Shown: positions 9,522 to 26,357, counted from the stretch's first letter. The stretch is DNA of 64,000 nt from a virus (IMGVR_UViG_3300020438_002794:1-64000); one strand, 5' to 3'. Notes: a model not told the origin generated them from the sequence alone. Numbers and translations are program-made.

Positions 9522-10340
9522 CTATATAGTATATTTGTAATCAAATATATCGTCATCTGCCATCCACTCATATACTTGTTCTAAGTTATTTACAAGATTT
9601 CCTTTGTGTCCTTGTTTGTATTTTATCTTCTTATAAGTATCAACCGGTTGTGAGTCAAACCCCAACAGTGGAAGTATCTGTTCAACATCATGTTGCCAAT
9701 CTTCATAATGTATAACATTTTGTATTTGTCCACGCTGTTTAAAGTGTTCAAATAAACGATTTGTTTTTTTCAATGCTTGCACATAAAAATCGTAAATCTG
9801 GTAGTTTATATCAAATGATTCAACATCTACAGTCTGATCCTCAAAACCAATGTGCATAATGTTTGTATGCTTGCTTACCAAATTACTTAATATCTGTTCT
9901 CTTATATCTCGTCTTGCACAGAAAATAAAACTATATCCATCAAGCAAACTAGTATCTTCAAAATATTTCAAAAACGTTTCTGTTTGTATTTTAAAAAAAC
10001 TTTTGTCTTGGTTAGTAACATTTTGTCTAAGCAACTGACTTCTTTTTTTAACTTCTTTTAAGTATCTTTCAGTACCTATTTCGAACGGCTTAGGATTATT
10101 GAGGATAAAGGTACGCTGTACGGATCCATCTATTTGGTCATATGTTTTTATATATGTTCCGTCAGGTAATGGCAGTTTATAAGGTACATTTATATCTTTT
10201 CCGTTTTCGTCATATCTCATCAGATTTTCAGATATACTAGTAATCTCTCCAATATAGTCTTTGTTATGGGCTTGTGCTAAACATTGACCAACAACTGTAC
10301 TGCCGGTTCGATTAAAACTGAGTATTGCAAGTGTTTTCAT
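9522..10340 (-). CDS. sulfotransferase-like protein (Stf0-type)
   Basis: 5'-PSB loop SFNRTGST, 3'-PB RRDIREQILS, IHYED. Confidence 0.75.
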   Translation of the reverse strand: MKTLAILSFNRTGSTVVGQCLAQAHNKDYIGEITSISENLMRYDENGKDINVPYKLPLPDGTYIKTYDQIDGSVQRTFILNNPKPFEIGTERYLKEVKKRSQLLRQNVTNQDKSFFKIQTETFLKYFEDTSLLDGYSFIFCARRDIREQILSNLVSKHTNIMHIGFEDQTVDVESFDINYQIYDFYVQALKKTNRLFEHFKQRGQIQNVIHYEDWQHDVEQILPLLGFDSQPVDTYKKIKYKQGHKGNLVNNLEQVYEWMADDDIFDYKYTI

Positions 10341-11458
10341 ACCTTTCTCTTAGGTATTTTACTATCAGCACTACTAACGCAACTAGGACTAATACAAGGC
10401 ATAGGCTGATCAAATAACTTAAATCCTGTCTCGATGTTGCCAAGAGGAACATCATAGCAACTGTAGCTACGTTTGATACTTCCGTCAGGTTCTCTAATGA
10501 TAATACCTTGATAGCCTGCATTGCAACTCCAGCCTTTAAACTTGTTAAAGTTAAATGCATTAAATCTCTCCGCTTGATCCATGTACCATTTTTTGCCTTT
10601 ACTATCTTGAAATTCAATTTGCATGTGCCAAGGTACACTAGCATCATTTTCGCCTATTGTGTAAGGCGGCAGTTCGAAACTAGGCCTTGGACGAGCATTC
10701 CACTTGCGTTTTGACTCTGTATACGCCATTTGCGGCATACCGTTCCACAATCGCTGTAGCATTTCGTCTGTATAACCGTCCACGACTCTACTTGCCGTTG
10801 GGTCCGATTGAGGTTTGAGGGTAACGTTGATTCCTTGGTTGTGGAAGAATAGGGCATTATCCCAATCTTTCTCAAACCAGTCTGGAACCATAACCATGTT
10901 GATTGTAATTTGTACATCATGTTCCTGACAGAAGATGAGTTTGTCGGCAAACTCTTGCATCTTCTCCTTTGTATTTAAGTGTTCTGTATGTAGGCTAGCT
11001 GTGATACTAGCTCTATGAAATGGCTTTGCATACTCGACATATTTCTCAAACCATTTCATATTGCGACTACAATTTGAGGTCATATGGATACTAGTATAAT
11101 TGGTATTAGGCACATCATTAGCAAGGTGTAAGAGGATTTCCAAATAGCCAGGATGAAAAGTAGGCTCACCGCCAGATAAGCTAAAATGAAAACTATTAAA
11201 TCCATTGTCTCGTGCCTGCCTTTTTATCTCATCGATTGTATGAATACAGAGCTGTGTGGGCCTGTGATCTTTGCGATCTGATCGGGCGTATGGCCAACAA
11301 TAACTGCACTTATAGTTGCAAAAGCGACCAAGAAGCCAACTAACAGTAAACAAATCTCTGTATAGTAGCGTCCTTTGTCCGACCGAAACCAAGTCATCAA
11401 ACGGTATTTTTGTAAAGTCATAATCACTCCACTTTAAATCTTCATTGGATTGTGCCAT
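10337..11458 (-). CDS. radical SAM protein with C-terminal twitch-like Cys module (type B)
   Basis: CNYKCSYC, SGGEPT, TSN, SLHTE; C-terminal FKGWSCNAG...SC...CISPSCVSSAD. Confidence 0.92.
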   Translation of the reverse strand: MAQSNEDLKWSDYDFTKIPFDDLVSVGQRTLLYRDLFTVSWLLGRFCNYKCSYCWPYARSDRKDHRPTQLCIHTIDEIKRQARDNGFNSFHFSLSGGEPTFHPGYLEILLHLANDVPNTNYTSIHMTSNCSRNMKWFEKYVEYAKPFHRASITASLHTEHLNTKEKMQEFADKLIFCQEHDVQITINMVMVPDWFEKDWDNALFFHNQGINVTLKPQSDPTASRVVDGYTDEMLQRLWNGMPQMAYTESKRKWNARPRPSFELPPYTIGENDASVPWHMQIEFQDSKGKKWYMDQAERFNAFNFNKFKGWSCNAGYQGIIIREPDGSIKRSYSCYDVPLGNIETGFKLFDQPMPCISPSCVSSADSKIPKRKV

Positions 11459-11612
11459 CTAATCGTTTCTCTAGGTATTCGATAACTGCTGGATAAAGAT
11501 CATTAGGCTTTTCTGCATGTAGCTCACGCACCGCATTCAGTTCATGTTCTAAGAATTCTCTAACAGTCCAACTTTCATAATCGCTGTTGGTTGCATGTAC
11601 TTTAAATTCCAT
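11442..11612 (-). CDS. small hypothetical protein (56 aa, not in ORF track)
   Basis: Manual translation MEFKVHATNSDYESWTVREFLEHELNAVRELHAEKPNDLYPAVIEYLEKRLDGTIQ; overlaps both neighbours. Confidence 0.65.
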   Translation of the reverse strand: MEFKVHATNSDYESWTVREFLEHELNAVRELHAEKPNDLYPAVIEYLEKRLDGTIQ

Positions 11613-12150
11613 TTCTTACTTTCTCCGTAAAAATTTCTGCGCCATTGGCTACATTAGTAGTCCAGTCGTCCATAGCGTTTTCATCTGCCATATCACTAAT
11701 ATACTTAAAACTTCTAAATTTAATATTATATTCTCTGGCTACATAAGCCAATGCCCAACCTTCCATATCCACACAATCTATATTTTGTTGTTCAAACCAT
11801 GGGTCAGGTTCCATAACAAAACTATCACCTGTACCACAACGTATACCTTGTCCTGATGTTTGTATTTCACCTAACAATGGTTCAGTAAACGGAATACTAC
11901 CTCTGGGTGCTTGTGGCTCCGCCATCATATCACGCTGTAAAAATGAACCAACTTCATGTAGTCCACTAATACCACTTACACCACCTGCAGTACCGTAATT
12001 CCAAATTTCAACTGGTTTATAAACGTGACATAAACTTTTTGCAAGTGCAGTAGCCGCTTGTACTTTGCCTACTCCAGTATATATTACTGTGTATCCATTC
12101 ATTTTAAAATCAGGTAGTTCAGCTTCTAGAGCTACACATATTGTTATCAT
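11602..12150 (-). CDS. mtnN: 5'-methylthioadenosine/S-adenosylhomocysteine nucleosidase (MTAN/Pfs family)
   Basis: VALEAE, GVGKVQAA, NYGTAGG, TGDSF, VDMEG, KYISDMAD. Confidence 0.85.
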   Translation of the reverse strand: MITICVALEAELPDFKMNGYTVIYTGVGKVQAATALAKSLCHVYKPVEIWNYGTAGGVSGISGLHEVGSFLQRDMMAEPQAPRGSIPFTEPLLGEIQTSGQGIRCGTGDSFVMEPDPWFEQQNIDCVDMEGWALAYVAREYNIKFRSFKYISDMADENAMDDWTTNVANGAEIFTEKVRNGI

Positions 12151-12695
12151 TGTTGCCTCGCCTGCATTGGATCAATGCTTATCTCATTTATATTAACATC
12201 TTTTGGCTGTTCTATCAACCACTTTACATATCTAGCGGCTTGATCAATACTCATACATACCCTGTCAGGGTGCTTGTGTTGATTGTTGCTGAGTGTACCA
12301 AAACTTATGTAGCTGGTCTTTGGTCCGCTGTGCCATACTCCTAATAAAGATAAGCTATTGCTGTAGTCACGCAATGCTTTCTTTTCAGCATTATACAACC
12401 AAGCTGATCCTTTCTTAGTTCTATCAGTAGTTGAGCCAATACATACAATATGTGCTTCGCTTTTGGCTGTTCTAAGCGCCTTGTATACTATATCCAGTAG
12501 GACAGTTTGATGAAAGCGCCATAATGCACTGTTTATTATAATTATGTCATGTTTAGTACATTCGTTTGCAAATGTAAACATATGATCTGTTTTAGTTAAA
12601 TCGTATCCTGATTCTCTGCTACAAAAAACAGCATTTGGATACAGTTTATGTAATGCTTGTGCAACACCTTCTTTGGGATTACCTGTTATAATCAT
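12147..12695 (-). CDS. short-chain dehydrogenase/reductase, compact
   Basis: ITGNPKEGVA (variant TGxxxGxG), IINSA, IGS, YNAEK (YxxxK), VNINEI. Confidence 0.75.
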   Translation of the reverse strand: MIITGNPKEGVAQALHKLYPNAVFCSRESGYDLTKTDHMFTFANECTKHDIIIINSALWRFHQTVLLDIVYKALRTAKSEAHIVCIGSTTDRTKKGSAWLYNAEKKALRDYSNSLSLLGVWHSGPKTSYISFGTLSNNQHKHPDRVCMSIDQAARYVKWLIEQPKDVNINEISIDPMQARQQ

Positions 12696-13836
12696 ATGTC
12701 TCTCCTCTTATTTTATCTAATTTTGTACTCCATTCTACAAAATATTTTTGATGTCGTTCAATACTATCATGTGTTAATTCTTTTATTATGTCTTTGAAAT
12801 ATTCATGGTCAGGATATCTTTGTTGTAATCGCAATACCTGTTGCATAGCTTGTTGTTTTTGTTCATCACTAGCATGTCTTGCCTGTAGTTGTTTTGGACC
12901 AGTTAATACTCTGTGTTCAATATAATCGATGCCTACATAACTTAAACACCAATTGTAAAACTCTTCTAAGTTACACATATTGTATACTTGATAAGTTCCG
13001 TTCAAACTCAGTGTATTATGCCATTCGTCTCTGCCTCCTTTTTGCCATTTATTGAGTTGCTGAATCTTAACATTTACTTCTTCCCATGTATAGTTATAGC
13101 CACGCATATATGGATACAAATCTCCAGTTGCGTCTATACTAACATGTATTTGAGTTCGCAAATAGTCTTTCAACTCTTCTAGTCTGGACACATCTAATTT
13201 GCTGGCATTTGTAGTAATTAACAATTTTACTTTTATCGGATCAACATATTGTTTTAGTTTATCCAAAAAGTCAAACACACTATTGTCCATAAATGGTTCA
13301 CCGCCTGTTATCCATATGCCATGTAGTTCTCCAAGCTCAGGGCCAAACTCTTGCAAAAACTTGTCTACATCTATTTGTTGTTTGGGATTACTTTGACTAG
13401 CGTCATATTTACCACCCATTTTTTTCCAGTCTGGTATCCACGCATTACTAAAATGTGGACCACACATTCTGCATTTAAAATTGCATATATTATTAAAGTT
13501 CATATATAAATGTTTTATTTTATTTCTGCGAACGTTTAAATTTTTTACATAAACATTCTCTTCACCCATATACTTTTTTTCGCCTTTTTGCGAAAACCAT
13601 TTGTTACGTCTACTGGTCTGTCCGTTTTGCTCTTTGTACCAACAACTATGACAACCATCTTCGTCCCATTTACCCGCAAGCATGTCAGTACGCAGAGTGG
13701 TAAACTTATCGTTACTCCATGCATCACGTTCGATTGGACCCATGTTGTAGTTACTCATCATGCATCTTGTTAGCCAATTGTTTGGATTAACTGCAAGTGT
13801 TACAAATGGCATTGGGCAATATGTATCTTTATGCAT
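12679..13836 (-). CDS. radical SAM protein with N-terminal SPASM/twitch-like module (type A)
   Basis: CPMPF...C...CHSC, then CNFKCRMC, TGGEPF, TTN, SID. Confidence 0.92.
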   Translation of the reverse strand: MHKDTYCPMPFVTLAVNPNNWLTRCMMSNYNMGPIERDAWSNDKFTTLRTDMLAGKWDEDGCHSCWYKEQNGQTSRRNKWFSQKGEKKYMGEENVYVKNLNVRRNKIKHLYMNFNNICNFKCRMCGPHFSNAWIPDWKKMGGKYDASQSNPKQQIDVDKFLQEFGPELGELHGIWITGGEPFMDNSVFDFLDKLKQYVDPIKVKLLITTNASKLDVSRLEELKDYLRTQIHVSIDATGDLYPYMRGYNYTWEEVNVKIQQLNKWQKGGRDEWHNTLSLNGTYQVYNMCNLEEFYNWCLSYVGIDYIEHRVLTGPKQLQARHASDEQKQQAMQQVLRLQQRYPDHEYFKDIIKELTHDSIERHQKYFVEWSTKLDKIRGETYDYNR

Positions 13837-15031
13837 AATGACTCCATTCAGGATAAGCTAGTGCGAAACTTTGTTTACGACTTGTATCTAGAAGACCTTG
13901 TACTCTTCTAAATTCATTGAGATCGATATCTTCTTTTGTGTTATCTAGTGCATAATCTATTGCACCTTTTATTTTATTTAAGTGCTTGATTACCAGAGGT
14001 TTTTGTGCAGATTGGATCCTATCACTATAAAAGTTGCTAGCCCTGTCTAAATCTTTTTTATAAAAATTCATAATACTCATTTCAAACGGATCTTGTACAA
14101 TATTAAAAACAAATTCTATATCTGAATAGTATTCAACCATGTCTGCCAAATGATACATGTTCATCCAGCTTATACCTGCATGAAAGTTTAAATGCCACTG
14201 TGGGCCTTGATTGCGGACAAACTCTGCATACTGTTTTACATTAGCGTCAACTATATGCCAATCATCTTTTGCACTTCTGGCCCAAGCATGACGTTGTCCC
14301 ATACCTTCAGCACTTATTTGTATTCTTTTATTTTTATTACCTTTAAAATGACTGAACTGTTCTAGTAGATCATATTTGCCATATTTTATTGTTGTACCAT
14401 TTGTTATCAAACTTAATGCTATATCAGTATTGCCTACTCTGATTATTTCTTCCAGCATCTGATAAGTTCCAGGCATAATAGTTGGCTCACCGCCTGCCAT
14501 TTTTATTTTCTTTACATAAGGTAAATGCGTTTTAAAGTCGTCCCATTTCATATCAAATTCTGCAATGCCAGTTTTTGGATTAACGTTTGACACTTCCATG
14601 CCCAGCATCTTAGCTTCTTTAAGCCAAAGATTACTGCTACTCAACCCACAGAATCTACATTTATAATTGCACAAGTTGCTCCAGCGTATATCCAAATACT
14701 CCAAGTGAAAGTTGTCCATACTCCCATCTGCATTAGTAACTGAACGGGCTTGTTCTTCATCCCACCAATGATATGTTTTCAAACTAAATGTTCGTACACT
14801 ATCGTCAGATAACTTTTCTCTGTTATTGCATTTCCAACACATGCTAGGCACAGTGTTAGGATCGAGTAGTTCTAATCTCAATTTTTTCATAATTGAATTG
14901 TTTGCTGTTTCAGCTATTGTGCTAGCCATTTCAAAAGGGTCTTTATACGTTTCACAACAGGCTTGTACTTGCCCGCCACTTCTGAACATCAAATGATTCC
15001 AAGGCAAAGGACAAAAGAAATCATTGCTCAT
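13829..15031 (-). CDS. radical SAM protein, type A
   Basis: CPLPW..ACC..CWKC; LDIRWSNLCNYKCRFC; AGGEPT. Confidence 0.92.
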   Translation of the reverse strand: MSNDFFCPLPWNHLMFRSGGQVQACCETYKDPFEMASTIAETANNSIMKKLRLELLDPNTVPSMCWKCNNREKLSDDSVRTFSLKTYHWWDEEQARSVTNADGSMDNFHLEYLDIRWSNLCNYKCRFCGLSSSNLWLKEAKMLGMEVSNVNPKTGIAEFDMKWDDFKTHLPYVKKIKMAGGEPTIMPGTYQMLEEIIRVGNTDIALSLITNGTTIKYGKYDLLEQFSHFKGNKNKRIQISAEGMGQRHAWARSAKDDWHIVDANVKQYAEFVRNQGPQWHLNFHAGISWMNMYHLADMVEYYSDIEFVFNIVQDPFEMSIMNFYKKDLDRASNFYSDRIQSAQKPLVIKHLNKIKGAIDYALDNTKEDIDLNEFRRVQGLLDTSRKQSFALAYPEWSHYA

Positions 15032-16238
15032 ATAAGTGCCTCCACTCTGGAAATATATCTATAAAACTTTGATTTCTGCTTGCATCTAATATGTTATGAA
15101 TAGATTTAAAGTATGCTATATCAAAATCATTACTGGTATTTCTAACACAATTTTCGATAGTTTGTTTAACCTGTTGTAAATGTTTAGTAACCCGAGGAGG
15201 TAATGGACAGTCTAATATCCTTTCGTAATGTTGTACACAACGTTCAAGTTCACTGCGGGTAAAAGCATTTATATTAAGTTCGGTTGGAAAAGTTACAAGA
15301 TTAAAGTCAAACTCCATATCGGGATAGGCTTGTATAAAACTGGGCAGATGCCATAGGTTTACCCAAGAAATACCTACATGGAAAAATGCGTTTCTGCGGA
15401 CGTTGTTTGGTGCTGTCACAGTGAAACTTTTGTATTTTTCAATATTTTTAGCAACATTATCCCAGTCTGTTTTCCCAGCTCGTTGCCAATCATGTCTAAT
15501 TCCCATACTTTCTGCACTAATATGTATTCTGACAGAGTTAAAATTTTCTAATAGACTTAATATATTATATTTTCCATATTCAACTTTAGATGCATTTGTT
15601 ACCAAAATTAGCTGTAAATCAAGATTGCCTATGTTAATAAGTTCTTCCAACAGTTGATAAGTGCCGGGCATAATAGTTGGTTCACCGCCAGCTAGTTTAA
15701 GTTTTTTTAGATAAGGCAAATGTGGTTTTAAATCTTCCCAGTCTATGTTGTATTCTTTGATGCCAGTTTTTGTATCATAACCTGTGTATTTTCCTCTTCC
15801 TAATTTATATCCTAATAGCTTATGATCTTTAAGCCAAAGGTTACTGCTACCTAAACTACAAAATCTACATTTGTAATTGCATAGATTACTTGACCTGATA
15901 TCTAGATACTCTAGGCGAAAGTTATCTGTTGTACCGTCGGGATAAGTTATTTCCTTTGCTGATTTAGGATTGATATGTGGAAATACTTTTAAATTATTTG
16001 TCCTCATACTAGGGACTGATGAATTTTCTTTTTTAACACAAATATGACACATTTTAGGAGTTGTGTTGGGATCTAATAGATCCAATCTAAGCTGACGTAA
16101 AACGGGATTATTTGCTGTTTCTGCTATAGTTTCACTAGGATCAAACTGATTCTCCCATGTTTCACAACAGGCTTGTACTTTGCCATTGGGTTTAAAAAAC
16201 AAATGATTCCAAGGTAAAGGACAAAAGAAATTATTCAT
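15021..16238 (-). CDS. radical SAM protein, type A (close paralog of 13829-15031)
   Basis: CPLPW..ACC..CHIC; CNYKCRFC; AGGEPT; ATG 16238 preferred (GGAG SD). Confidence 0.92.
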   Translation of the reverse strand: MNNFFCPLPWNHLFFKPNGKVQACCETWENQFDPSETIAETANNPVLRQLRLDLLDPNTTPKMCHICVKKENSSVPSMRTNNLKVFPHINPKSAKEITYPDGTTDNFRLEYLDIRSSNLCNYKCRFCSLGSSNLWLKDHKLLGYKLGRGKYTGYDTKTGIKEYNIDWEDLKPHLPYLKKLKLAGGEPTIMPGTYQLLEELINIGNLDLQLILVTNASKVEYGKYNILSLLENFNSVRIHISAESMGIRHDWQRAGKTDWDNVAKNIEKYKSFTVTAPNNVRRNAFFHVGISWVNLWHLPSFIQAYPDMEFDFNLVTFPTELNINAFTRSELERCVQHYERILDCPLPPRVTKHLQQVKQTIENCVRNTSNDFDIAYFKSIHNILDASRNQSFIDIFPEWRHLYEQ

Positions 16239-17385
16239 AATGCTCAAACTCCGGAACTATACTGTGCAAGTTTTCACTTCTGCTAGCGTCTAGTGTGTGC
16301 GTATACTTGTAAAAAGCTGGTAGTTTTTCACTCCAATCCTCATGCCACATGTAGTCAATTATGCCTTGTACTTTGGGCAAATGCACATATGGTTTTAATT
16401 GTTCATGTGCTTGCTGTTTAAGTGCATTGGGCAACACTCTTATATTCAAATATTCAGGATGATTTAATATATTAAAATATATTTTATGCCCGTATGGCTT
16501 GGCCCATTCTATAAATTGGGGCATACGCAATATGTTATACATTTGCACTGTACAATGTATTTCTATATTTGCATTATCAAGTGTTTGTATACTTTCAAAG
16601 TTTTCTAACACTGTCTGCCAACGACTGGGATGTCTGATATAATGATCTAGTTCACCCACAGCATCTATTGAACAGTTGAGTTGTATGCGTTTAAAGTGTC
16701 TCCATCTATCTAATAACCAACTGGGCATTTTAACCAAGTTGGTATTATATTTTAATCTTATATCTTTTGCTGTGCCGTTGTCAATAAAATAATCTAATAA
16801 ACGCTGTTGTTTTTTAATTACAGTTGGTTCGCCACCTGTTAAGTATATTTCTTCAACAGTGTGTGCAATAGCAAACAAGTTTTGCCAAGTCTTTTCTTCT
16901 TCGGGCCAATCCATTCTGCTGAGACGTTTGTATTCACTTTCACTTAGTGCAGTTTCAACACTGGCCCACTCCTTTACCCACATGTTACTGGCATAGGGAT
17001 TACACATTCTACATTTTAAGTTGCACAAGTTGCTGAGCCTAAGATCCACATATTTGATATCAAATGGAGCATCTTCAGTATACTGTTTGTCTTCACTCCA
17101 TTTTTCATTCCATGCTTGTCTGGCACTGCGGATACCTGCGTCCTCTTCTCTAAAACAACGTGTACACATCTCTGGTCGTTCACTGTTTAACAGTTGCTTG
17201 CGGATCTCGGCATATGTTTCACTGTTCCATGCTTGTTGCATATCATCTCTGTACAGCTTATAAGGAGTTCCGTCGGGCTTGAGAATAAAGTTTTTGCCCG
17301 GTGTGCTATTACAACACACTCTCAAGTTACCACTTGCGTTTGTAGCTAGATGCATCCAAGGCAATATGCAAAACGTATCAGACAT
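16231..17385 (-). CDS. radical SAM protein, type A
   Basis: CILPW..VCC..CTRC; DLRLSNLCNLKCRMC; TGGEPT; ATG 17385 preferred. Confidence 0.93.
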   Translation of the reverse strand: MSDTFCILPWMHLATNASGNLRVCCNSTPGKNFILKPDGTPYKLYRDDMQQAWNSETYAEIRKQLLNSERPEMCTRCFREEDAGIRSARQAWNEKWSEDKQYTEDAPFDIKYVDLRLSNLCNLKCRMCNPYASNMWVKEWASVETALSESEYKRLSRMDWPEEEKTWQNLFAIAHTVEEIYLTGGEPTVIKKQQRLLDYFIDNGTAKDIRLKYNTNLVKMPSWLLDRWRHFKRIQLNCSIDAVGELDHYIRHPSRWQTVLENFESIQTLDNANIEIHCTVQMYNILRMPQFIEWAKPYGHKIYFNILNHPEYLNIRVLPNALKQQAHEQLKPYVHLPKVQGIIDYMWHEDWSEKLPAFYKYTHTLDASRSENLHSIVPEFEHYE

Positions 17386-18559
17386 ATGGTGCAAACTCCG
17401 GTACTACGTCAACAAGATTGGTGTTTCTTGTACTGTCTAATGTTTGTGTAAAACGTAAGAACTGTTTAAAATATTGACTTTCATCTTTAGCATTCATAAA
17501 TGCCATATTTTGATTAATAAATCTATGTATACGTTTATTGCGTTCACCTCTGGGCTCTACTGTATTTAAATATTTTTTATATTTTTCAGTGGCTTTTTGT
17601 TTTAATTCCTCGGGCAATACTTGTGGATTAATGAATATAGGATCCCATGCTATATTACCATGCACAGGAGTATCCAATATACGTTCAAAGTATTCATAGC
17701 TTTCAGGTAATCCAAACACATTCCAAGCACTGTAGCACAGTGCCGCTCTACCAATATATTTGTTGCCCAGTTCAGCTTTCACTAATTTTAAATTTTCTGC
17801 TAGTACATCAGTATCTGATTCAGTTCTTATATAATTGTTTAATTCAGGATGTCCGTCTATGCTTAAACTAAGATCAACAGCTTTGAACTTTGCCCAACTG
17901 GCTATAGTATCAAACTTTCCGAACTTGACTTTGCTGAGATTTGTGCTATACTTAACACTTATATTAGTGGCAAAGGGCTCTAATGCTTCCAACACTCTAT
18001 AGTGCAGTGGATCCATAAGTGGCTCACCTCCTGCAAATTCTACTATTTCAATGGTAGGTGCTAGTCTCAGTATGTCTTGTATAAATTGATCATTATCAAA
18101 ATTTGTTTGTCTTGCAGTATCATTGTGTAGTCCTAAACTTTTATACTCATGTTTAACTGCACTCCAGTCTTTCATCCATGTTGTACTCAGCTCAGGCTTG
18201 CAAGTTCTGCATCTGAAGTTACACAAGTTGCTCATTTTAAGTTCTAATACTGGTACTACAAACGGCATCTCTATGGTGCATGTATCGGGAATCATGTGTT
18301 GTCTGGTCTTGTTCATACTTTGTCGCATACTAACTGAACCTTGATCTTCCATATCCCAACACTGAAAACAGTGTTTGTTACGCACACCTGTTAATAAATC
18401 TTTTCTTAGTTGCTGTTGACGCTCACTGTTCCATGCTTGTTCGAAAGTCATGTCTTTTATATTGCCCAATGTATCTCTACTGCGACAACAAGGAGTTATA
18501 TCACCATTGGGTCTAGTGCTTAGGTGTGTAAATGGTAATACGCAAAATGTATCAGTCAT
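17378..18559 (-). CDS. radical SAM protein, type A
   Basis: CVLPF..PCC..CFQC; CNFRCRTC; AGGEPL; ATG 18559 (ATGA overlap) preferred. Confidence 0.93.
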   Translation of the reverse strand: MTDTFCVLPFTHLSTRPNGDITPCCRSRDTLGNIKDMTFEQAWNSERQQQLRKDLLTGVRNKHCFQCWDMEDQGSVSMRQSMNKTRQHMIPDTCTIEMPFVVPVLELKMSNLCNFRCRTCKPELSTTWMKDWSAVKHEYKSLGLHNDTARQTNFDNDQFIQDILRLAPTIEIVEFAGGEPLMDPLHYRVLEALEPFATNISVKYSTNLSKVKFGKFDTIASWAKFKAVDLSLSIDGHPELNNYIRTESDTDVLAENLKLVKAELGNKYIGRAALCYSAWNVFGLPESYEYFERILDTPVHGNIAWDPIFINPQVLPEELKQKATEKYKKYLNTVEPRGERNKRIHRFINQNMAFMNAKDESQYFKQFLRFTQTLDSTRNTNLVDVVPEFAPYV

Positions 18560-19530
18560 GCTGTTTCCAACCATTTAGTTGTATTGAGATCTGCCGCACA
18601 GTTGCACCACTGCTTCATACAAAGCACAGGATCTTCTTCTAGCGTAAATCCAGTTTCAATATTACCCAATACTCCGCCTTGCTTGCACGTTGCTCTATAC
18701 ACACTACCATCATTGTCTATCATCAGTGTTTCAATACCAGCCATGCACTTCCATTTTTTAAATGTATTCCATTTGTTTTTGGTTAGTGTATTAACATTGT
18801 CCATCCAACTTTCATCTTGTGTAAACAATTCACAATTTAGCTCTGCTGTACCTGCACGATTAAAACTTTCCATATAGTCTAGCTCAGCTTGATTGTAATA
18901 ATTCTCTGCTCCGGCGTATTGTATACCGGCAAACTTCATGCCACTGCTATAAGGCTTGTTCATTTCGCCTGTTTGTAAATTGGTCATTGGTCTAATACGT
19001 CTTATATTAAATTGAATTTCGTTTGCATTAAGCCATTCAACTACTGAACGTATCTCTTGTAATTTTCCAGGCAAGTACATTAGGTGTACTTTTACTTGCT
19101 TGCGATTTAAATTGCTGAGTACATGTTTCATATGATCCACACGCAAAAATTCAAAGTGCCAACTGAATATCAAACTGTCAATTAATTCTAATGCACGTTG
19201 ATATTTTTCCAATGGCAAACTGCCATTTGTTATAGTACTGCATTCTTCTACTCCGTAACGTGGAAATAATTCTAATATATCCAATATGCGTGGGTGTACA
19301 AACGGCTCACCTCCAGTTATACTCATGCGTATTTGTTTGTCCGCATAAAACTCACGCATGGTCTTCACAGCATATTCAAACTTTTCAAAAGGCAAGTGCT
19401 TGCTTTTGTTGTCGTGTAGGTCTGCACCGCAATAGCTACAATCAAAGTTACAGCGTCTACCCATGTTCCATTCAATGCGTACCCACTCTTTATACTTTTT
19501 ATTGCTGTGTTCTACTCTTACCAGTTGCAC
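18556..19530 (-). CDS. radical SAM protein, type B
   Basis: CNFDCSYC, TGGEPF, TNG, SWHFE; C-terminal FKKWKCMAG..TC..CMKQWCNCAAD. Confidence 0.92.
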   Translation of the reverse strand: MQLVRVEHSNKKYKEWVRIEWNMGRRCNFDCSYCGADLHDNKSKHLPFEKFEYAVKTMREFYADKQIRMSITGGEPFVHPRILDILELFPRYGVEECSTITNGSLPLEKYQRALELIDSLIFSWHFEFLRVDHMKHVLSNLNRKQVKVHLMYLPGKLQEIRSVVEWLNANEIQFNIRRIRPMTNLQTGEMNKPYSSGMKFAGIQYAGAENYYNQAELDYMESFNRAGTAELNCELFTQDESWMDNVNTLTKNKWNTFKKWKCMAGIETLMIDNDGSVYRATCKQGGVLGNIETGFTLEEDPVLCMKQWCNCAADLNTTKWLETA

Positions 19531-20825
19531 TAAAACTCACCTTTCAGTTCAGGTATACAATCTAATACATTTGTTCCTCTTATACGATCTAATTCTCTAG
19601 TAAAATGTTTGAATAATTCCCATTCTTTTTCTTTATATTTGGGATTTTTCATTGCATCTCTTAGACGATCCAGAGCATGATAGTTTTTATCCCATTTATC
19701 TAAAACACGTTGTTTAATATGAGGTGGCATATTATTGATATCCAAGTAAGCAGGCTTTGATACTAGATCTGCAAAATTATTCGGTCTTTCATATCTAGTT
19801 GGACTGTCACTGGTTCTATCAGCTATCACATGCCACCAATGATCTAAATCTCCAGTAACTCGTTCTATCCAGTCAGATAAATTTTGTAAATCAAATATAT
19901 TATATATACTGATAGCAATGCTAAAGTATCCTCTTACATTATCAAATTGATCATACCATTTTAAGTTTTGTTCCAACTGTTCAATTGTTTGTACATTACT
20001 GCCTCTGATGTACTGATAAAGATCACCAGTTGCTTCAATGCTAACATTGAGTACAACACGTTTAAAATGAGGCCATAGCCTTTTAAGTTTTTCAGGTACT
20101 CTTGTTCCATTGGTGGTGTATCCTAACGTAACATTAGGCGCACTGCCATTTGCAACCAATATCTCCAGCACTTCGTACATTCCATCCTGCATCAAAGGTT
20201 CGCCGCCTTTGAAGTCGATGCGTTCCATTTGACTAAGTTTGTCTTCCATGTTTTTATATAAACTAGGATTTATGCTTCTTACTGTAGTATTTTCTAAATG
20301 TCTTTGAAATTGTGGATTTATTTGTTGTAATTTTTTATCTTCTTTGAACCAATGTGTGCTTCCCCAACTGCCACACATTCTACACTTTAGATTGCAAGTA
20401 TTACCAAAGTTTAAGTCCATGTGTTTTAAATTCATTGGAGGATTATTTAAGTAAGCGTCGGGTCTATTTTCTATTTTTTCCAACATCCATTGTCGTCTAC
20501 TAATACCTGCGGTGCTTTCATTTTTCCAACAATCTTGACAACCCTGAGGTTTTTCTTTTGCCAACATTTGTTGTCTCATCTTTTCCATACCTTCCCAAGC
20601 ATCTTGTAGTGTATGACCTTTATATATATTCAGATGTTCAGTTTCTGCCTTCCAATCAGGAGTTCTTCCAGCTTCTTTTGCTATTCTCTGATCGGAAGTA
20701 AACTTACAACAAGGTTTAATATCTCCATTGGCGCTTAGTGTAATACTAGTCCATGGCACTATACAAGTAGGAAGATCTCCGGGCCAAGCATCACCAATTC
20801 TATACTTTTTATCAATATAGGTCAT
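19530..20825 (-). CDS. radical SAM protein, type A
   Basis: CIVPW..PCC..CQDC; CNLKCRMC; KGGEPL; TTNG. Confidence 0.93.
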   Translation of the reverse strand: MTYIDKKYRIGDAWPGDLPTCIVPWTSITLSANGDIKPCCKFTSDQRIAKEAGRTPDWKAETEHLNIYKGHTLQDAWEGMEKMRQQMLAKEKPQGCQDCWKNESTAGISRRQWMLEKIENRPDAYLNNPPMNLKHMDLNFGNTCNLKCRMCGSWGSTHWFKEDKKLQQINPQFQRHLENTTVRSINPSLYKNMEDKLSQMERIDFKGGEPLMQDGMYEVLEILVANGSAPNVTLGYTTNGTRVPEKLKRLWPHFKRVVLNVSIEATGDLYQYIRGSNVQTIEQLEQNLKWYDQFDNVRGYFSIAISIYNIFDLQNLSDWIERVTGDLDHWWHVIADRTSDSPTRYERPNNFADLVSKPAYLDINNMPPHIKQRVLDKWDKNYHALDRLRDAMKNPKYKEKEWELFKHFTRELDRIRGTNVLDCIPELKGEF

Positions 20826-22228
20826 AGTAATTCTGCTAATATAGGAAACACCTCAGGAAACTTGTTTCCCCAGTTGCGTTGTTTATTAATTAAATTTAAC
20901 CATTGTTTAGTTTCTGGAAGTCTAGCACTCCAGTCTTCTTGATTCATAAAGTTAATGATACCTTTATAACGTTTAATACCATATGGATTATTATCAAATG
21001 TTTCTTTATCAATGCCAGCTTCTTGAACACCTGTAAACCTATGCCAGTTTTCGTCTATCCAAGGATAAAATTCTTGTTCATATTTGTCTGTTACCTGTTG
21101 TTTGATATGTGCTGGTAATACTTTTAAGTTGAGTTGTGGTGGCCAATAAGCAAAGTGCATGTTAATTCCGCCTGCACCCAAGGGCCATTTGTTTATTTTC
21201 TTAAACCCTTGATCAACTTTCCACTTGACAAACTCTGGTATATAATGTACATTGAGAGCCATAATAGTAGTAGCTGTGGTAACTTCTACTTGTGGAGCAG
21301 TTTCATCCAACAACCAAAATACCTTTTCTTGGTGTTCCCATACACTGGGATAGCGTATATAATCATTGTGTTCACCGTGTGCATCTATGCTGTAGTGAAA
21401 ACGCACACGTTTAAACTCTGCCCATAGATCAAATAAATCGTCACGCCATTCAACAGCATTTGAGTTGTAGCGTAATTCAATATTTTTAGCATAACCTTGT
21501 TTAATACATTCTTCTAATAGATCGTAGTGTTGATTAATAATTAAACTTTCGCCACCAGCAAAGTACAGTTGATACATGTGCGGAACTTGTTCCATTAGTT
21601 CTTTCCAAAAGCGTGGATTGTTCATGTGCCAATTGTATGTTGCTCCGTGGTTTTTGCCTTTGTTGTGCCAGCCGCTGGTATTTTTTAATTTTTCATTGTC
21701 TATTTGTGGATAAATGCTGTTCCATTCTTTGACCCAGCCACTTGAATCATGTGGGCTACACATAACACAAGCCAGCTGACATTTTGTACCCATACGCAAA
21801 TCAATATAGCGTATTTTAGGTTCTACTCTACCGTCGGCTTCTGTAGCTTTAGCTAGATCAAATAGATCATATCTATTTCCCCAATACTCTGTCTCCCAGT
21901 TGCGTTTGCTTAAATGTCCAGCTTCTTCCTCTTTGTAGCATTTTAAACAGGGTGCTGGCTTCTCTCCACGCAACATCATTTTGCGAACATTACGCATGTA
22001 ATCCGAATTCCATGCATCAGTCAAACTGGTTGTATTAAAGTTAGCTGGAACACCGTCGTCATTTTTAACTACGCCAACTTCACCGCCGCCTACTTTTTTA
22101 TTACTGTCTGGGTCTTGAACACTGCTGGCATTTGATGTACAGCATGTTCGCATTTTGCCATCTGGTCTGCTTGATAAGTGTAACCAAGGTAACGCACAAA
22201 ATGTCGGGCTAATTTTGTCTGTTTTCAT
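20822..22228 (-). CDS. radical SAM protein, type A
   Basis: CALPW..TCC..CLKC; CQLACVMC; AGGESL; YSID. Confidence 0.93.
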   Translation of the reverse strand: MKTDKISPTFCALPWLHLSSRPDGKMRTCCTSNASSVQDPDSNKKVGGGEVGVVKNDDGVPANFNTTSLTDAWNSDYMRNVRKMMLRGEKPAPCLKCYKEEEAGHLSKRNWETEYWGNRYDLFDLAKATEADGRVEPKIRYIDLRMGTKCQLACVMCSPHDSSGWVKEWNSIYPQIDNEKLKNTSGWHNKGKNHGATYNWHMNNPRFWKELMEQVPHMYQLYFAGGESLIINQHYDLLEECIKQGYAKNIELRYNSNAVEWRDDLFDLWAEFKRVRFHYSIDAHGEHNDYIRYPSVWEHQEKVFWLLDETAPQVEVTTATTIMALNVHYIPEFVKWKVDQGFKKINKWPLGAGGINMHFAYWPPQLNLKVLPAHIKQQVTDKYEQEFYPWIDENWHRFTGVQEAGIDKETFDNNPYGIKRYKGIINFMNQEDWSARLPETKQWLNLINKQRNWGNKFPEVFPILAELL

Positions 22229-22240
22229 ATATGTATTTAA
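22229..22240 (-). promoter_or_regulatory. late promoter-like TTAAATA directly before ATG
   Basis: Minus strand TTAAATA-CATAT-ATG(22228) in the only intergenic gap inside the tandem array; no SD. Confidence 0.55.
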
Positions 22241-22243
22241 CTA

Positions 22244-23326
22244 CTATGTAAATTGTTCAGCAAAGGGATCAAATTCCGTTCCGCACTTCATAGCACATAC
22301 ACCTAATTTTCCTTGCTTTACACTGGGTAAATTCCAACTGTTTTCAATATTATTTAACAATGATCCTTGCATAACTGTGTGTAGATCATTGTTTATTACA
22401 TCAATTCCCTCTTTCCCACCAGCGAGATCAATGTGTTCCCACACTTGTTCTATACGATAATCTTTATGCCACCATTTGTACATACGACCAGCAACCCAAC
22501 AACAAGGCATTAACAATCCTTCTGCTGTAATAAAGATTGATTTTTCTTCAGCTACTTTGCATTTTATATCACAACTATCATAATAATCACGCATACTTCC
22601 ATATGTTTTTTCTATTTCTTTTTGTTTTAATAGTGCTAGATTTTGATTACTTAATTTTTTAGGCTTCTCTAATAGCTGTGTTTCAACACCTTTTCTATTT
22701 TGTGCTTGGTGTGTGTCTTTCCTCTGACTGTTGGCATTAAAGAATCTACCCGACTTTTTCTTTTGAAAGCGTTCTACTCCCCATTCTCGGGCAAGTGCTT
22801 CTGCTTCTTCAACTTGATGTTCGTTGTGTCCAAATATAATAAAGTCCCAACGAGCTCTTCCGCCTGCGTCACAAAATGCTCGCATGTTGCGTTCTACATT
22901 ATCCCATACAACATTTTGCCTATACAGATGATTAGTGTCGCTAAGACCGTCAACTGAGAATATAACGGCACCTTTCCGACCAATTGTTTTAGCAAGCGTC
23001 TGCCACCATTCAATATCTTTTGCTCCAGCATTTGTGTTCATACTTAGCCACATGTCGGCGTTGTGTTGTCTAAAATATTCAAATACTTCCAGTGTATCCT
23101 TGGCTACTATAGGATCACCCAAGTTGCCGCACATGTACATGGTGTGTAATTGTTGGATAAAGTCAGGTGTAAAGATACGTTGACAGTCGTGTAAACTTAG
23201 TTCACTATTATCTATATGGCGGTTGTCTACACCACCATTTTCATTTCTATCGCACATTGGACATGCCGCTTGACATTTTTGTGTAATTTCCAAATGTACT
23301 GTTCTAATATCTTCATAATTATACAT
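22244..23326 (-). CDS. radical SAM protein with C-terminal Cys module
   Basis: CQAACPMC, CGNLGDP, NTN, FSVDG; C-terminal C..PCC..CAMKC. Confidence 0.9.
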   Translation of the reverse strand: MYNYEDIRTVHLEITQKCQAACPMCDRNENGGVDNRHIDNSELSLHDCQRIFTPDFIQQLHTMYMCGNLGDPIVAKDTLEVFEYFRQHNADMWLSMNTNAGAKDIEWWQTLAKTIGRKGAVIFSVDGLSDTNHLYRQNVVWDNVERNMRAFCDAGGRARWDFIIFGHNEHQVEEAEALAREWGVERFQKKKSGRFFNANSQRKDTHQAQNRKGVETQLLEKPKKLSNQNLALLKQKEIEKTYGSMRDYYDSCDIKCKVAEEKSIFITAEGLLMPCCWVAGRMYKWWHKDYRIEQVWEHIDLAGGKEGIDVINNDLHTVMQGSLLNNIENSWNLPSVKQGKLGVCAMKCGTEFDPFAEQFT

Positions 23327-23543
23327 CTAATATTAGTTTCACATCCTTACCAGGACCTGTTTTGCTGGGCAGGTCTCCGTATGTATTTACATACCATTCG
23401 ATAACTGCACGGTACCATAGTTGACTGTTATGATGTGCTTGTTGATTGAATTGATGAATATTATTGTTGGTTGCCGCCATTGCACTCAATGCCCTAGCAC
23501 TTTCTATTTGTAGATCCCTAAGTTTCAGATCGTCTAGATTCAT
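23319..23543 (-). CDS. small hypothetical protein heading the radical SAM array
   Basis: 74 aa, overlaps both neighbours. Confidence 0.7.
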   Translation of the reverse strand: MNLDDLKLRDLQIESARALSAMAATNNNIHQFNQQAHHNSQLWYRAVIEWYVNTYGDLPSKTGPGKDVKLILDV

Positions 23544-24571
23544 TTCTTTCCAATCAGCATAAACCTATTATAAAGTTGTGTGTCTAATTCACCTTCATAG
23601 TATATTGTACGCATCGGATATTTCTTTTTTGCTTCTTTAACGTTTTTTACACAATTAATATGTTGTGAATTACTAAAATAATCATTTGTTTGTAAACACA
23701 CAAAAGTATCCTTAGGTAAACGCTCAAACCAAGTTTCATCCATATGTTCACAACTGGTGTTTATAACCAGGTCAGGCTGAACCCAAATTTCCACGTTGTT
23801 GCCTTCCATATTTTTAGTTCCAACTATAAAACTAGCTTCATCGTCGTAGGTGATATCATCAACATCTTGCCATACACTTTTAAACTGCCATTGGTTATTA
23901 GTTTGTACATAGTTAAAATCATCTGCCATTTGTATGCACTGAACATCTTTTTCAAGACTTAAATATTTTTTAATATCAAAATTTTGAAAGAATAACTGTG
24001 CAACAGTAGCATACCAGCCTCCGTATTGTACTACTGTGCCTAACTTGGGAGGGTGTGCTATTCCTGTTTGTTCTGTTACAATTTTTTTAAGTTCATCTAC
24101 CATCCATAACTTGCTACACATTTGTCCTCTGCTGAAATGCTCATTGAGATTTGCCTGTGTTTCCCATTTAATGCACCAACTGCTGATTCTTCTGATATAT
24201 TCGTCGTCGATGCAGTGTGCAATATAACGAGCTATCTTTCTATGCGTGACATATTTCCAGCCTATATGATGTGACATTAGTATGTTAATAAATTCTTCAC
24301 TGAATTCGATTCGTCCTCTGTTTATTTCACCAACTATTAATCTTTTTATTTTCCAAACATTACCATGTAATACTGCTTTTTTAATATTCATAAACATATC
24401 AAGTTGAGGATGATCAATATGTGTAAGGTATTCTTCAATTCCGTGTATCCAAAAGAAGTCTAACGTGGGTTTGTATATTATTAATTGTTCCCCGTCTTCA
24501 CCTTTGATTACCTTTTCTTCACCTATTAGGAGTTTACCGTCTTCGTTTATTTCGTCAAGTTGCGGCATCAA
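23540..24571 (-). CDS. class I SAM-dependent methyltransferase-like protein
   Basis: VVQYGGWYA (motif I variant), SLEKD acidic motif II, DLVINTSCEHM, RFMLIG. Confidence 0.6.
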   Translation of the reverse strand: MMPQLDEINEDGKLLIGEEKVIKGEDGEQLIIYKPTLDFFWIHGIEEYLTHIDHPQLDMFMNIKKAVLHGNVWKIKRLIVGEINRGRIEFSEEFINILMSHHIGWKYVTHRKIARYIAHCIDDEYIRRISSWCIKWETQANLNEHFSRGQMCSKLWMVDELKKIVTEQTGIAHPPKLGTVVQYGGWYATVAQLFFQNFDIKKYLSLEKDVQCIQMADDFNYVQTNNQWQFKSVWQDVDDITYDDEASFIVGTKNMEGNNVEIWVQPDLVINTSCEHMDETWFERLPKDTFVCLQTNDYFSNSQHINCVKNVKEAKKKYPMRTIYYEGELDTQLYNRFMLIGKK

Positions 24572-25259
24572 ATGTCTCCTTTAACCATTCAAAATCATTA
24601 ATTAAATTTAATGTTTTTGCATTATTTCTATATGTTCGACCAAAGTCAGTACCTTGTGTTGCACCTAGTATTGCGTATTCACCGTTCTGTCTATTAGCAC
24701 CTTTGCTTTGCCATACTTTTAATCTATACTCATTGTCAGTGTTGTCACCGTGTTCGATAATAGCACTGGCTAGTTTAGTACATTCTCTAAACGCACTGCG
24801 CCATGCATTAAAAGGATCTGTATTAAACGCTGTGATGTTACTGATTTGAAACTTGGGAACAAATGGACAACCTATACTTGTAGTCATATCCACATTCCAG
24901 TCTTTTGCATCTAATAGTGCTTTGCGTGGGAACAGCTTTGCACCACCATATCCGTACAATAGATCATTCACTGGATTTTGACTGCGCCATACAAACACAC
25001 AATCAGTTTCGTATACGCCGGGCCATTGTTCTTTGCGAGGTCCTGGTGTAAAATTAAAATTAAACTGTTCGTCTATAATAGCATCAGCATCAATAACATA
25101 AAAGTTTCTAGTTTCTGCTAGTTTTGCCGCGGCTTTGTGTGCCGCAAAAATACCTTCAACACCCTGTACACGCTTGGCGTGGGGTGCGAACAGTTGCAGT
25201 AATTCAAAATTGTCATCAGCATATGGCTCATGATAGCTAATCTGAATAACATCTAACAA
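24555..25259 (-). CDS. GT-A fold glycosyltransferase-like protein
   Basis: ISYHEP, AHKAAA, VIDAD (DxD), NPVNDLLYGYGGAK, AWRSAFRE; paralog of 47054-48031. Confidence 0.65.
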   Translation of the reverse strand: MLDVIQISYHEPYADDNFELLQLFAPHAKRVQGVEGIFAAHKAAAKLAETRNFYVIDADAIIDEQFNFNFTPGPRKEQWPGVYETDCVFVWRSQNPVNDLLYGYGGAKLFPRKALLDAKDWNVDMTTSIGCPFVPKFQISNITAFNTDPFNAWRSAFRECTKLASAIIEHGDNTDNEYRLKVWQSKGANRQNGEYAILGATQGTDFGRTYRNNAKTLNLINDFEWLKETFDAAT

Positions 25260-25311: not shown

Positions 25312-25425
25312 CTACTCATATATAAATGGATCTTTGTCCTTTAGTTCTTTCATTTTCTTTTTACGCCATTTGTACTCTTTGTATTTGGTCCAAGGTAAAA
25401 GAATAAAATCAATTATTGTTTGCAT
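25312..25425 (-). CDS. 37-aa basic peptide ending DPFIYE (not in ORF track)
   Basis: Manual translation MQTIIDFILLPWTKYKEYKWRKKKMKELKDKDPFIYE; AAGGAG SD; overlaps the upstream stop. Confidence 0.65.
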   Translation of the reverse strand: MQTIIDFILLPWTKYKEYKWRKKKMKELKDKDPFIYE

Positions 25426-26357
25426 AGTTGCTCCTTTATATATTCTATAGTATGCATTAATCCCGCCTGTCTGTCAACAGTGGGTTCCCACCCTAAACAG
25501 TCACGGGCAAGTTGAATATCCGGACAACGTTTGTTGGGATCATCTACTGCACTGGCTTGATGCACTATTTCACTAGTACTATCAGTAAGTTCAACAATCT
25601 CTTGTGCTAATTCAATTAAACTAACTTCGTCTGGATTCCCTATATTTACAGGACCTGCATGGTCACTGTTCATAAGTTTTATTAATCCTTGTACAGTATC
25701 AGTTACATAACAAAAACTTCTAGTCTGTAGTCCATCACCGTGTACAGTGATTGGTTTATTTTGCAATGCTTGTATTATAAAATTACTAACTGCTCTACCA
25801 TCATTCAGTGCCATGTGTGGTCCATATGTGTTGAATATTCTGGCAATAGTTGTATCAGCACTGCTGATAGTACACATGGTTTCTGCTACACGCTTGCCTT
25901 CATCATAACAAGCACGTGGTCCTAGTGTGTTTACGTTGCCCCAATATGTTTCTTTTTGTGGATGTTCAAGTGGATCACCATATACTTCGCTGGTGCTTGC
26001 TTGTAGCAATCTAGCGTCAGCTTGTTCAGCCACGCTCAACATGTTGATCACACCTTCCATGTTGGTCATCAGTGTGTTCCATGCATCGCTTTGATAGTGT
26101 ACAGGACTAGCAGGGCAAGCTAAGTTGTATATTTGTTTAAGCGGATCAAACTTTCCCATTAGTTGATAATCGTGCAAGGGAATTTTTATGTCCTGTTCAA
26201 TAAAATAATAATTATTTTTTCCTCTGAACTGTAGTAAGTTATCCGCTGATCCTGTGTAATAGTTGTCCACAGCAATTACAATCTCACCTTGTGCCAACAG
26301 TTGTTTACACAATTCAGTTCCTAATAATCCTGCGGCTCCTGTTACCAATATGGTCAT
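25413..26357 (-). CDS. uxs: UDP-glucuronate decarboxylase (UDP-xylose synthase), extended SDR
   Basis: TGAAGLLG, LACPASPVHYQ, ASTSEVYGDP, YWGNVN, RACYDEGKRVAE, RIFNTYGP, QTRSFCYV, DDP..R.PDI. Confidence 0.9.
   Translation of the reverse strand: MTILVTGAAGLLGTELCKQLLAQGEIVIAVDNYYTGSADNLLQFRGKNNYYFIEQDIKIPLHDYQLMGKFDPLKQIYNLACPASPVHYQSDAWNTLMTNMEGVINMLSVAEQADARLLQASTSEVYGDPLEHPQKETYWGNVNTLGPRACYDEGKRVAETMCTISSADTTIARIFNTYGPHMALNDGRAVSNFIIQALQNKPITVHGDGLQTRSFCYVTDTVQGLIKLMNSDHAGPVNIGNPDEVSLIELAQEIVELTDSTSEIVHQASAVDDPNKRCPDIQLARDCLGWEPTVDRQAGLMHTIEYIKEQLCKQ

Follow-up and report, generated by a model that had tools for sequence, protein, structure and literature searches.

This study concerns an unbroken array of nine radical S-adenosylmethionine (rSAM) genes at positions 12679 to 23326 of a 64,000-nucleotide stretch of viral DNA (IMGVR_UViG_3300020438_002794:1-64000, hereafter the window). 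Seven of the nine encode members of a single protein family, N_Twi_rSAM (NCBIfam NF033640), all nine are intact and under purifying selection, and most of the N_Twi genes are cassettes that come and go between related phages. We favor, with moderate confidence, the reading that these genes encode separate, individually selected rSAM tailoring enzymes, which would contribute to a sugar-nucleotide, glycan, or glycoconjugate product specified by a hypervariable island beside tail genes.

Nine intact genes and the N_Twi family

The array consists of nine consecutive minus-strand open reading frames (ORFs) of 324 to 468 aa each (Table 1), and the spacing between neighbors of only -19 to +15 nt indicates one translationally coupled operon; scans for promoters and terminators gave results at chance level (62 found against 60.7 expected and 10 against 8.4 expected). 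None of the nine ORFs showed a frameshift or internal stop, and every protein contains exactly one CxxxCxxC motif and a match to the rSAM domain PF04055. Seven of these matches exceed the gathering score of 29.5 bits, and the remaining two fall just below it (28.1 bits for 17378-18574 and 24.0 bits for 20822-22228) in proteins that match NF033640 at 343 and 419 bits. The GGE motif is present in eight of the proteins, with NLGD at the same position in 22244-23326. Auxiliary cysteines are found in all nine, N-terminal to the core in seven and C-terminal only in 18556-19530 and 22244-23326. A preliminary description of this DNA had reported nine consecutive intact rSAM genes, each with a GGE-type motif (NLGD in 22244) and an auxiliary Cys module; these observations hold, with the correction that the module lies at opposite ends of the protein in the two groups.

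Seven array proteins match NF033640 end to end (approximately model positions 1-397) at 234.6 to 418.9 bits, well above the curated cut-off of 170 bits, whereas 18556-19530 and 22244-23326 score 29.3 and 44.9 bits. The earlier view of all nine as paralogs is therefore borne out for the seven that share this family, while the other two are different types of rSAM protein. Together with two further members elsewhere in the window, the seven have the same N-terminal four-Cys module and rSAM core as the rest of NF033640, and nothing separates the N_Twi genes of the window from that family. The 87-kb record from which the window is taken encodes 18 rSAM proteins by PF04055, nine of them full NF033640 members, and all 18 genes lie in the window between 5.6 and 47 kb. 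Among them is a second, small paralog family (10337-11458, 18556-19530, and 42374-43411), in which the array member shares 23-25% identity over ~350 aa with the other two.

In the seven N_Twi proteins, Pfam SPASM matches are located at residues ~9-100, ahead of PF04055 at ~115-300, so that the predicted order of modules is reversed relative to the usual one, with the twitch module before the rSAM core. A profile of the paralogs aligned with the C-terminal twitch of BtrN (query 9-78 to BtrN 187-257, E 9e-4). Four N-terminal cysteines, three core cysteines, GGE, S136, S242, and R254 are invariant across 106 diverse members, and since four invariant cysteines suffice for one auxiliary cluster, the module is a twitch rather than a full SPASM domain; the seven or eight C-terminal cysteines and two clusters of a canonical SPASM domain are lacking in all seven. 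We also rejected the possibility that the N-terminal twitch represents the C-terminal Cys module of 22244-23326 copied with shifted boundaries (hhalign probability 2.7%). BtrN, the 2-deoxy-scyllo-inosamine dehydrogenase of the butirosin pathway, is the founding twitch enzyme and acts on a sugar-like small molecule. It resembles the proteins described here in having one fully Cys-ligated auxiliary [4Fe-4S] module, which is homologous to their N-terminal module. However, the twitch of BtrN follows the core, whereas here it is permuted to precede it, similarity elsewhere is generic, and the N_Twi genes do not belong to the BtrN family.

Structure prediction, one of the checks proposed in the preliminary description, delivered a confident AlphaFold2 model for 16231-17394 (predicted local distance difference test [pLDDT] score 96.3, predicted template modeling [TM] score 0.92), but searches of the PDB with this model reached the generic rSAM core only (TM 0.36-0.40). 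The top matches were the anaerobic sulfatase-maturating enzyme (anSME) and BlsE (Z 13.7), viperin (Z 13.3), and SkfB (Z 12.9), and they also include CteB and SuiB; no solved structure covers the whole N_Twi architecture, and the fold searches led to no inference about the substrate. Several of the nearest characterized relatives of the core use nucleotide-linked substrates, namely MoaA, viperin, BlsE, and DesII. For 16231-17394, the protein modeled, 1938 homologs were found in metagenomes at E<=1e-10, and the best 120 of them are 70-91% identical to it; a profile search of 1.84 billion representatives found 10,086 clusters of the family at 50% identity (E<=1e-30).

Selection, cassette turnover, and the conserved core

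Pairwise identity among the seven N_Twi array proteins is 20-31%, the exception being 13829-15031 and 15021-16247, which share 49%. The copies from the window are scattered in a tree that includes Bacteroidota homologs and representatives of 76 viral clusters, and only this duplicate pair are sisters. Ratios of nonsynonymous to synonymous substitution (dN/dS), calculated pairwise by the NG86 method against orthologs in five related loci (L001, L003, L004, L016, and L081), are 0.03-0.24 for eight array genes, while 15021-16247, which was compared only with its paralog 13829-15031, gave 0.27. Because dN/dS lies between 0.03 and 0.27 in all nine genes, all are under purifying selection and neutral decay is excluded.

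To follow turnover of the genes, 80 of 98 loci found were kept, each comprising the universally conserved N_Twi gene 20822-22228, hereafter the anchor, and 10 kb on either side. These loci contain 331 N_Twi ORFs, one to nine per locus, which form 88 single-linkage clusters at 50% identity. The anchor has orthologs in all 80 at 67-97% identity and is the only universal N_Twi gene, whereas the other N_Twi genes of the window have homologs at >=40% identity in only 1 to 9 of the 80. The closest relatives share the same gene order with insertions and deletions of whole genes; for example, L001, L003, and L004 do not have 15021-16247 as a second copy. Other near-complete relatives encode from 10 to at least 21 rSAM proteins, nearly all in one island. 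The strong divergence of most copies claimed in the preliminary description is thus evident, and its proposal of retained paralogs with different sites or substrates is supported by the purifying selection, the deep divergence, the scatter in the tree, and the different subsets carried by related phages. That proposal had also offered subunits of a hetero-oligomer as an option and had treated all nine genes as one set of paralogs; the former is not supported as an obligate complex, and the latter holds for seven of the nine.

Near the anchor, a conserved core can be recognized that also includes the rSAM gene 22244-23326, for which 79 of 80 loci have a homolog at >=40% identity, a 74-aa gene immediately upstream of it, and a gene for a GT-A-like protein. 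The 74-aa gene (23319-23543) fills an apparent gap of 213 nt, overlaps both of its neighbors, and is missed by ORF lists with an 80-aa minimum. Of 81 loci, at least 60 carry it at 62-79% identity (67 tblastn matches), a 330-kb relative has a single copy, and its pN of 0.15-0.2 against a pS of 0.65-0.95, the latter saturated, indicates strong purifying selection. The protein has 16 invariant columns in 43 sequences, with a mean column identity of 78%; it lacks cysteines, and W43, Y44, and Y51 are invariant and W50 nearly so. No relative was found in the PDB or the ESM Atlas (ESM Atlas scores <=0.82), and the PDB profile matches to designed helical repeats and antibody light chains were dismissed as chance matches. 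As to the GT-A-like protein (24555-25259), a sequence profile search against the PDB gave no match, and the lead comes from its predicted fold. The AlphaFold2 model has a pLDDT of 92.1, and all top Foldseek matches in the PDB are GT-A glycosyltransferases (SunS, ThuS, WrtF, RmlT, GtrB, and PBCV-1 A64R; probability 1.0). In its DAD motif, D57 is nearly invariant and D59 invariant. With moderate confidence, we consider this protein to be GT-A-like.

A proposed glycan product and competing explanations

The array is part of a larger island, directly upstream of which PHROGs identify a virion structural protein of 3240 aa as well as proteins of the baseplate wedge and hub, and which contains transferases and rSAM cassettes that vary between relatives. 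In marine T4-like phages, Zaragoza-Solas et al. (2020; PMC7029224) described such an organization as a hypervariable host-recognition island containing glycosyltransferases as well as rSAM cassettes, to which neither a family nor a function was assigned. Like that pelagimyophage and cyanomyophage island, the one described here is large, non-syntenic, and situated within the structural region, but the genome, at 330-360 kb, is about double the size, the 18 rSAM genes dominate the island, and a core with the 74-aa gene is defined. Nishimura et al. (2017; PMC5332604) noted 12 rSAM genes in the T4-like marine genome TARA_ERS488813_N000010, which we liken to the present phage by its description; there they are known as a count of Fe-S-related genes only, without analysis of an array, family, or selection. 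Cassettes of rSAM genes in marine T4-like phages have therefore already been mentioned in passing in two papers. The preliminary description judged the density of rSAM genes to be far above that of bacterial clusters; the high density itself is real, with 18 here and at least 21 in one relative, and has been noted before in these two papers (PMC5332604, PMC7029224). The strong selection and cassette swapping beside host-recognition genes point to a role in phage-host specificity.

A sugar or glycan substrate is favored because the island encodes nucleoside diphosphate (NDP)-sugar enzymes, a DesII-like rSAM protein, and the conserved GT-A-like partner. The DesII-like protein, 27081-29420, is predicted from its sequence to provide a direct link to NDP-sugar chemistry. 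DesII is a TDP-4-amino-4,6-dideoxy-D-glucose ammonia-lyase, and the resemblance suggests that rSAM chemistry on NDP-sugars is encoded in the island; however, the gene lies outside the array, scores below the equivalog cut-off, and is a fusion with a Gfo/Idh/MocA oxidoreductase, and the array genes themselves are not DesII-like. As for substrate class, chemistry, and destination of the product, we infer that each cassette enzyme would abstract a hydrogen atom at a position of its own in a sugar nucleotide, glycan, or glycoconjugate made by the NDP-sugar enzymes and transferases of the island. The fully ligated auxiliary cluster may take up an electron, by analogy with BtrN, and the outcome could be oxidation, epimerization, deoxygenation, or formation of a C-C bond, the first two and the last of which are suggested by BtrN-type enzymes. 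A nucleosidase-like protein encoded by the last gene of the operon might clear inhibitory 5'-deoxyadenosine and S-adenosylhomocysteine (SAH), and the final product, differing between phage strains, would be a decoration of the virion or of the infected cell surface.

Several observations weigh against this reading. To our knowledge, NF033640 is a curated but uncharacterized family in which no member has a known substrate or reaction, and no paper describing or naming it was found in the literature searched. The assignment of 24555-25259 to the GT-A glycosyltransferases depends on a predicted fold with Foldseek TM values of only 0.3-0.4, and no GT2 or GT8 domain was found in the 87-kb record, which is a fragment of the genome. 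The gene directly upstream of the first rSAM gene encodes a highly conserved small protein, and the fold matches of the rSAM core include the peptide and protein maturases anSME, SkfB, CteB, and SuiB. At one chromosomal N_Twi locus of Bacteroidota, the flanking genes encode four tandem PhyH-type dioxygenases, a WelO5-like Fe/2-oxoglutarate (2OG) enzyme, and a SAM methyltransferase but no sugar enzymes. Finally, matches to eight of the nine array genes and to the nucleosidase gene are found among short contigs from four marine RNA libraries, mostly with zero differences and a few with 10-24. Since DNA may be present in these libraries and much of the array is not covered, the contigs are no proof of transcription, nor evidence against it.

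The main rival is maturation of a peptide or protein, in the manner of RiPPs (peptides synthesized by ribosomes and then modified post-translationally), which we consider possible but doubtful. Under this alternative, the 74-aa protein or a neighboring virion protein would be the substrate, on which the rSAM enzymes install cross-links, epimerizations, or side-chain changes, possibly after glycosylation of the peptide by the GT-A-like enzyme. The position directly upstream of an rSAM gene is the classic place for a peptide substrate, and the 74-aa gene occupies it under strong purifying selection and encodes invariant aromatic residues. Enzymes with SPASM or twitch modules are mostly peptide maturases, the structural genes adjoin, and the GT-A-like partner has its top fold matches in two peptide glycosyltransferases, SunS and ThuS. 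The likeness to the RiPP maturases SkfB, CteB, and SuiB and to anSME extends to an auxiliary cluster and a small conserved ORF beside the rSAM gene, as well as to the best fold matches (Z 12-13.7), but those fold matches reflect the common core only and the auxiliary module is N-terminal here. No RiPP recognition element (RRE) or PqqD family was detected among the Pfam and NCBIfam matches of the nine proteins, although the unannotated neighbors were not searched with RRE-specific models. Furthermore, the uniformity of the 74-aa protein contrasts with the 88 clusters of enzymes and fits poorly with all cassettes acting on it, the gene is absent at the chromosomal N_Twi loci of three Bacteroidota genomes, and the island contains genuine NDP-sugar enzymes. 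We regard as improbable the suggestion that the enzymes act on nucleotides or phage DNA, either hypermodifying bases or sugars against restriction or performing viperin-like chemistry against host defense. The next-best NCBIfam matches after NF033640 do include MoaA and prokaryotic viperin, ThyX and a B12-dependent rSAM protein are encoded nearby on the other strand, and hypervariability is typical of arms-race genes. However, the MoaA and viperin matches cover the generic core and are far under the family cut-offs, no hydroxymethylase, DNA glycosyltransferase, or base-exchange enzyme is found among the annotated neighbors, and the island resides in the structural module beside carbamoyl-, sulfo-, and methyltransferases typical of glycan tailoring.

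The data also agree far better with independent tailoring enzymes than with decaying duplicates or an obligate complex. For the paralogs to be subunits of one hetero-oligomeric rSAM machine, which we think very improbable, one would point to the tight gene overlaps that suggest coupled translation and to natural fusions among metagenome representatives (P0241-P0270), in which two and in one case three N_Twi modules are joined, all of them complete and equipped with their own CxxxCxxC and GGE; in addition, 38 of 147 newly listed best matches exceed 700 aa. Given these fusions, neighboring N_Twi proteins may associate physically, but every copy has retained the full set of catalytic motifs, and the genes other than the anchor are gained and lost singly even among the closest relatives, which does not support an obligate complex. 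That the copies are redundant or decaying duplicates with no present function has next to no chance of being correct. One recent tandem duplicate, the pair 13829-15031 and 15021-16247, speaks for this view, but the ORFs and motifs are intact throughout, even the duplicates are constrained relative to one another, and the array genotype (>=95% of sampled words) recurs in 16 DNA runs, which come from 11 marine virome and metagenome studies between 2016 and 2023.

Returning to a product built on sugars, a more elaborate version of this reading, which we consider unlikely but worth stating, is a combinatorial radical-chemistry island, in which a fixed core starts a glycoconjugate and strain-specific N_Twi cassettes add different radical modifications. 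If this is true, the core would comprise the GT-A-like transferase, the 74-aa protein as carrier or substrate, one canonical rSAM enzyme, and one N_Twi enzyme, and the cassette pool would amount to at least 88 subfamilies in this lineage and >10,000 clusters at 50% identity worldwide. The rSAM enzymes would then diversify the product as glycosyltransferases do in O-antigen loci, and glycans or glycopeptides tailored by radical chemistry, a class so far undescribed, would be carried by the virus particle or infected cell. The reactions of radical SAM enzymes are chemically difficult, and most families of these enzymes are uncharacterized. The N_Twi family is very large and is concentrated in abundant, globally distributed marine giant phages, with up to at least 21 rSAM genes per genome, so that identification of a substrate would assign a function to thousands of genes, possibly reveal new sugar or peptide chemistry, and could explain a long-noted feature of marine T4-like phage genomes.

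Source phage, distant relatives, and flanking genes

The window belongs to a viral contig of 87,129 bp from IMG/VR, for which CheckV gives 24% completeness, and related contigs reach 330 kb at 93% completeness; the contig is a fragment of an uncultured marine giant phage with a genome that we estimate at ~330-360 kb, which is T4-like because genes for the virion structural protein and for the baseplate wedge and hub adjoin the island. A megablast search of the array against 50,697 phage records gave no match, and there is therefore no close cultured relative among them. Upstream of the island, at 96-3328 and 4983-5648 on the plus strand, are genes for an AAA ATPase, a DUF2201 metallopeptidase/von Willebrand factor A (VWA)-like protein, a 2OG-Fe(II) oxygenase, and ThyX, an opposite-strand set that resembles that of marine cyanomyophages and pelagimyophages. 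A single-protein search of genome contigs found just one contig from a metagenome-assembled genome (MAG), and it looks like binned phage DNA. In a Crocinitomicaceae MAG, several short contigs (G006 contigs C480, C457, C59, C187, and C30; locus L081) carry N_Twi, GT-A-like, and 74-aa genes, and the presence of these phage core genes is either a binning artifact or a weak hint at a flavobacterial host.

Beyond this group of phages, chromosomal copies of N_Twi genes occur in 3 of 300 Bacteroidota genomes, with 2-4 per locus, and the GT-A-like and 74-aa genes are absent from these three genomes. In the one locus annotated in detail (L095; G084:C2:1208000-1227999), the genes flanked by the dioxygenases mentioned above are two divergent N_Twi genes, and the flanks also include a gene for a protein sorted by the type IX secretion system (T9SS) with an endosialidase-chaperone domain. 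The presence of 9-13 N_Twi copies per genome appears to be a phage feature. Distant N_Twi homologs are carried by cultured KVP40-like Vibrio phages, among them Vibrio phage K566 (OZ196521.1, L099 11971-18707), where ~7 kb contains four N_Twi-type genes with other genes between them; one of the latter has a weak match to the WbbM glycosyltransferase (E 0.004). Such reduced arrays make cultured Vibrio phages a practical entry point, and K566 is a possible experimental model.

Table 1. Coordinates of array genes and other features of the island within the window
Position	Strand	Feature	Evidence
5663-7144	+	B12-binding rSAM	
11602-12150	-	MTA/SAH-nucleosidase-like; last operon gene	PF01048 64.2 bits; 93% identical in L003
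12147-12695	-	182-aa protein in same operon; overlaps both neighbors	80-82% identical in L001, L003
12679-13836	-	N_Twi_rSAM, variable cassette; last array rSAM	NF033640 234.6 bits; dN/dS 0.13-0.18
13829-15031	-	N_Twi_rSAM, variable cassette	NF033640 282 bits; dN/dS 0.15-0.22
15021-16247	-	N_Twi_rSAM, tandem duplicate of 13829-15031	NF033640 275.2 bits; 49% identity
16231-17394	-	N_Twi_rSAM, variable cassette; copy modeled	NF033640 396.7 bits; dN/dS 0.08-0.11
17378-18574	-	N_Twi_rSAM, variable cassette	NF033640 343.1 bits; Pfam SPASM residues 11-73, E 2e-11; dN/dS 0.09-0.17
18556-19530	-	rSAM, second paralog family; N-terminal core, C-terminal cysteines	PF04055 47.5 bits; phrog_13987 76.9 bits; dN/dS 0.05-0.13
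19530-20825	-	N_Twi_rSAM, variable cassette	NF033640 297.8 bits; >=40% identity homolog in 6/80 loci; dN/dS 0.11-0.24
20822-22228	-	Anchor N_Twi_rSAM, universally conserved	NF033640 418.9 bits; dN/dS 0.03-0.17
22244-23326	-	First array gene; rSAM, C-terminal Cys-rich module, NLGD; non-N_Twi; conserved core	PF04055 35.6 bits; NF033640 44.9 bits (core region); phrog_21308; dN/dS 0.05-0.2
23319-23543	-	Conserved gene (74 aa) immediately upstream of the first rSAM; may encode a substrate, carrier, or accessory protein	
23540-24571	-	343-aa protein in core region	No Pfam/NCBIfam match; homologs in 44/80 loci
24555-25259	-	234-aa putative GT-A-fold glycosyltransferase-like protein, DAD motif	>=40% identity homolog in 69/80 loci
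25413-26366	-	NAD-dependent NDP-sugar epimerase/dehydratase	PF01370 142 bits; PF16363 132 bits
27081-29420	-	779-aa Gfo/Idh/MocA oxidoreductase fused to DesII-like rSAM	TIGR04426 352 bits (cut-off 450), residues 310-748; PF01408 residues 33-112
31423-31857	-	APS-kinase-like P-loop protein	
33847-35121		N_Twi-like protein	70 bits
35075-35869		rSAM with canonical C-terminal SPASM	
40997-41833	-	Sulfotransferase-like protein	Weak match
44401-45699	-	Full N_Twi_rSAM, far island end	NF033640 384 bits
45699-47051	-	Full N_Twi_rSAM, far island end	NF033640 356 bits
47054-48031	-	Paralog of 24555-25259	37% identity; homologs in 75/80 loci

The operon ends with two genes downstream of the last array rSAM gene. 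The protein encoded by 12147-12695 gave no Pfam or NCBIfam match, and a TG-rich N-terminus and the sequence YNAEK, which fits YxxxK, make it resemble, by eye only, a short-chain dehydrogenase/reductase (SDR). The last gene, 11602-12150, also matches the nucleosidase model NF004168 at 95.7 bits, under the cut-off of 129, and, more weakly, models for methylthioadenosine (MTA)/SAH nucleosidases. Enzymes of this class remove 5'-deoxyadenosine, an inhibitory by-product of rSAM reactions. The protein is a candidate remover of both 5'-deoxyadenosine and SAH, and its placement would fit the high rSAM load because such enzymes clear the inhibitory by-product. A-type Fe-S carrier domains were not found in the 87-kb fragment. 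Further genes of the island encode a nucleotide-diphospho-sugar transferase, a carbamoyltransferase, a class I/II aminotransferase, and an FkbM methyltransferase. The occurrence of genes for an adenosine 5'-phosphosulfate (APS)-kinase-like and a sulfotransferase-like protein in one island is a hint at a phage-encoded route to a sulfated product.

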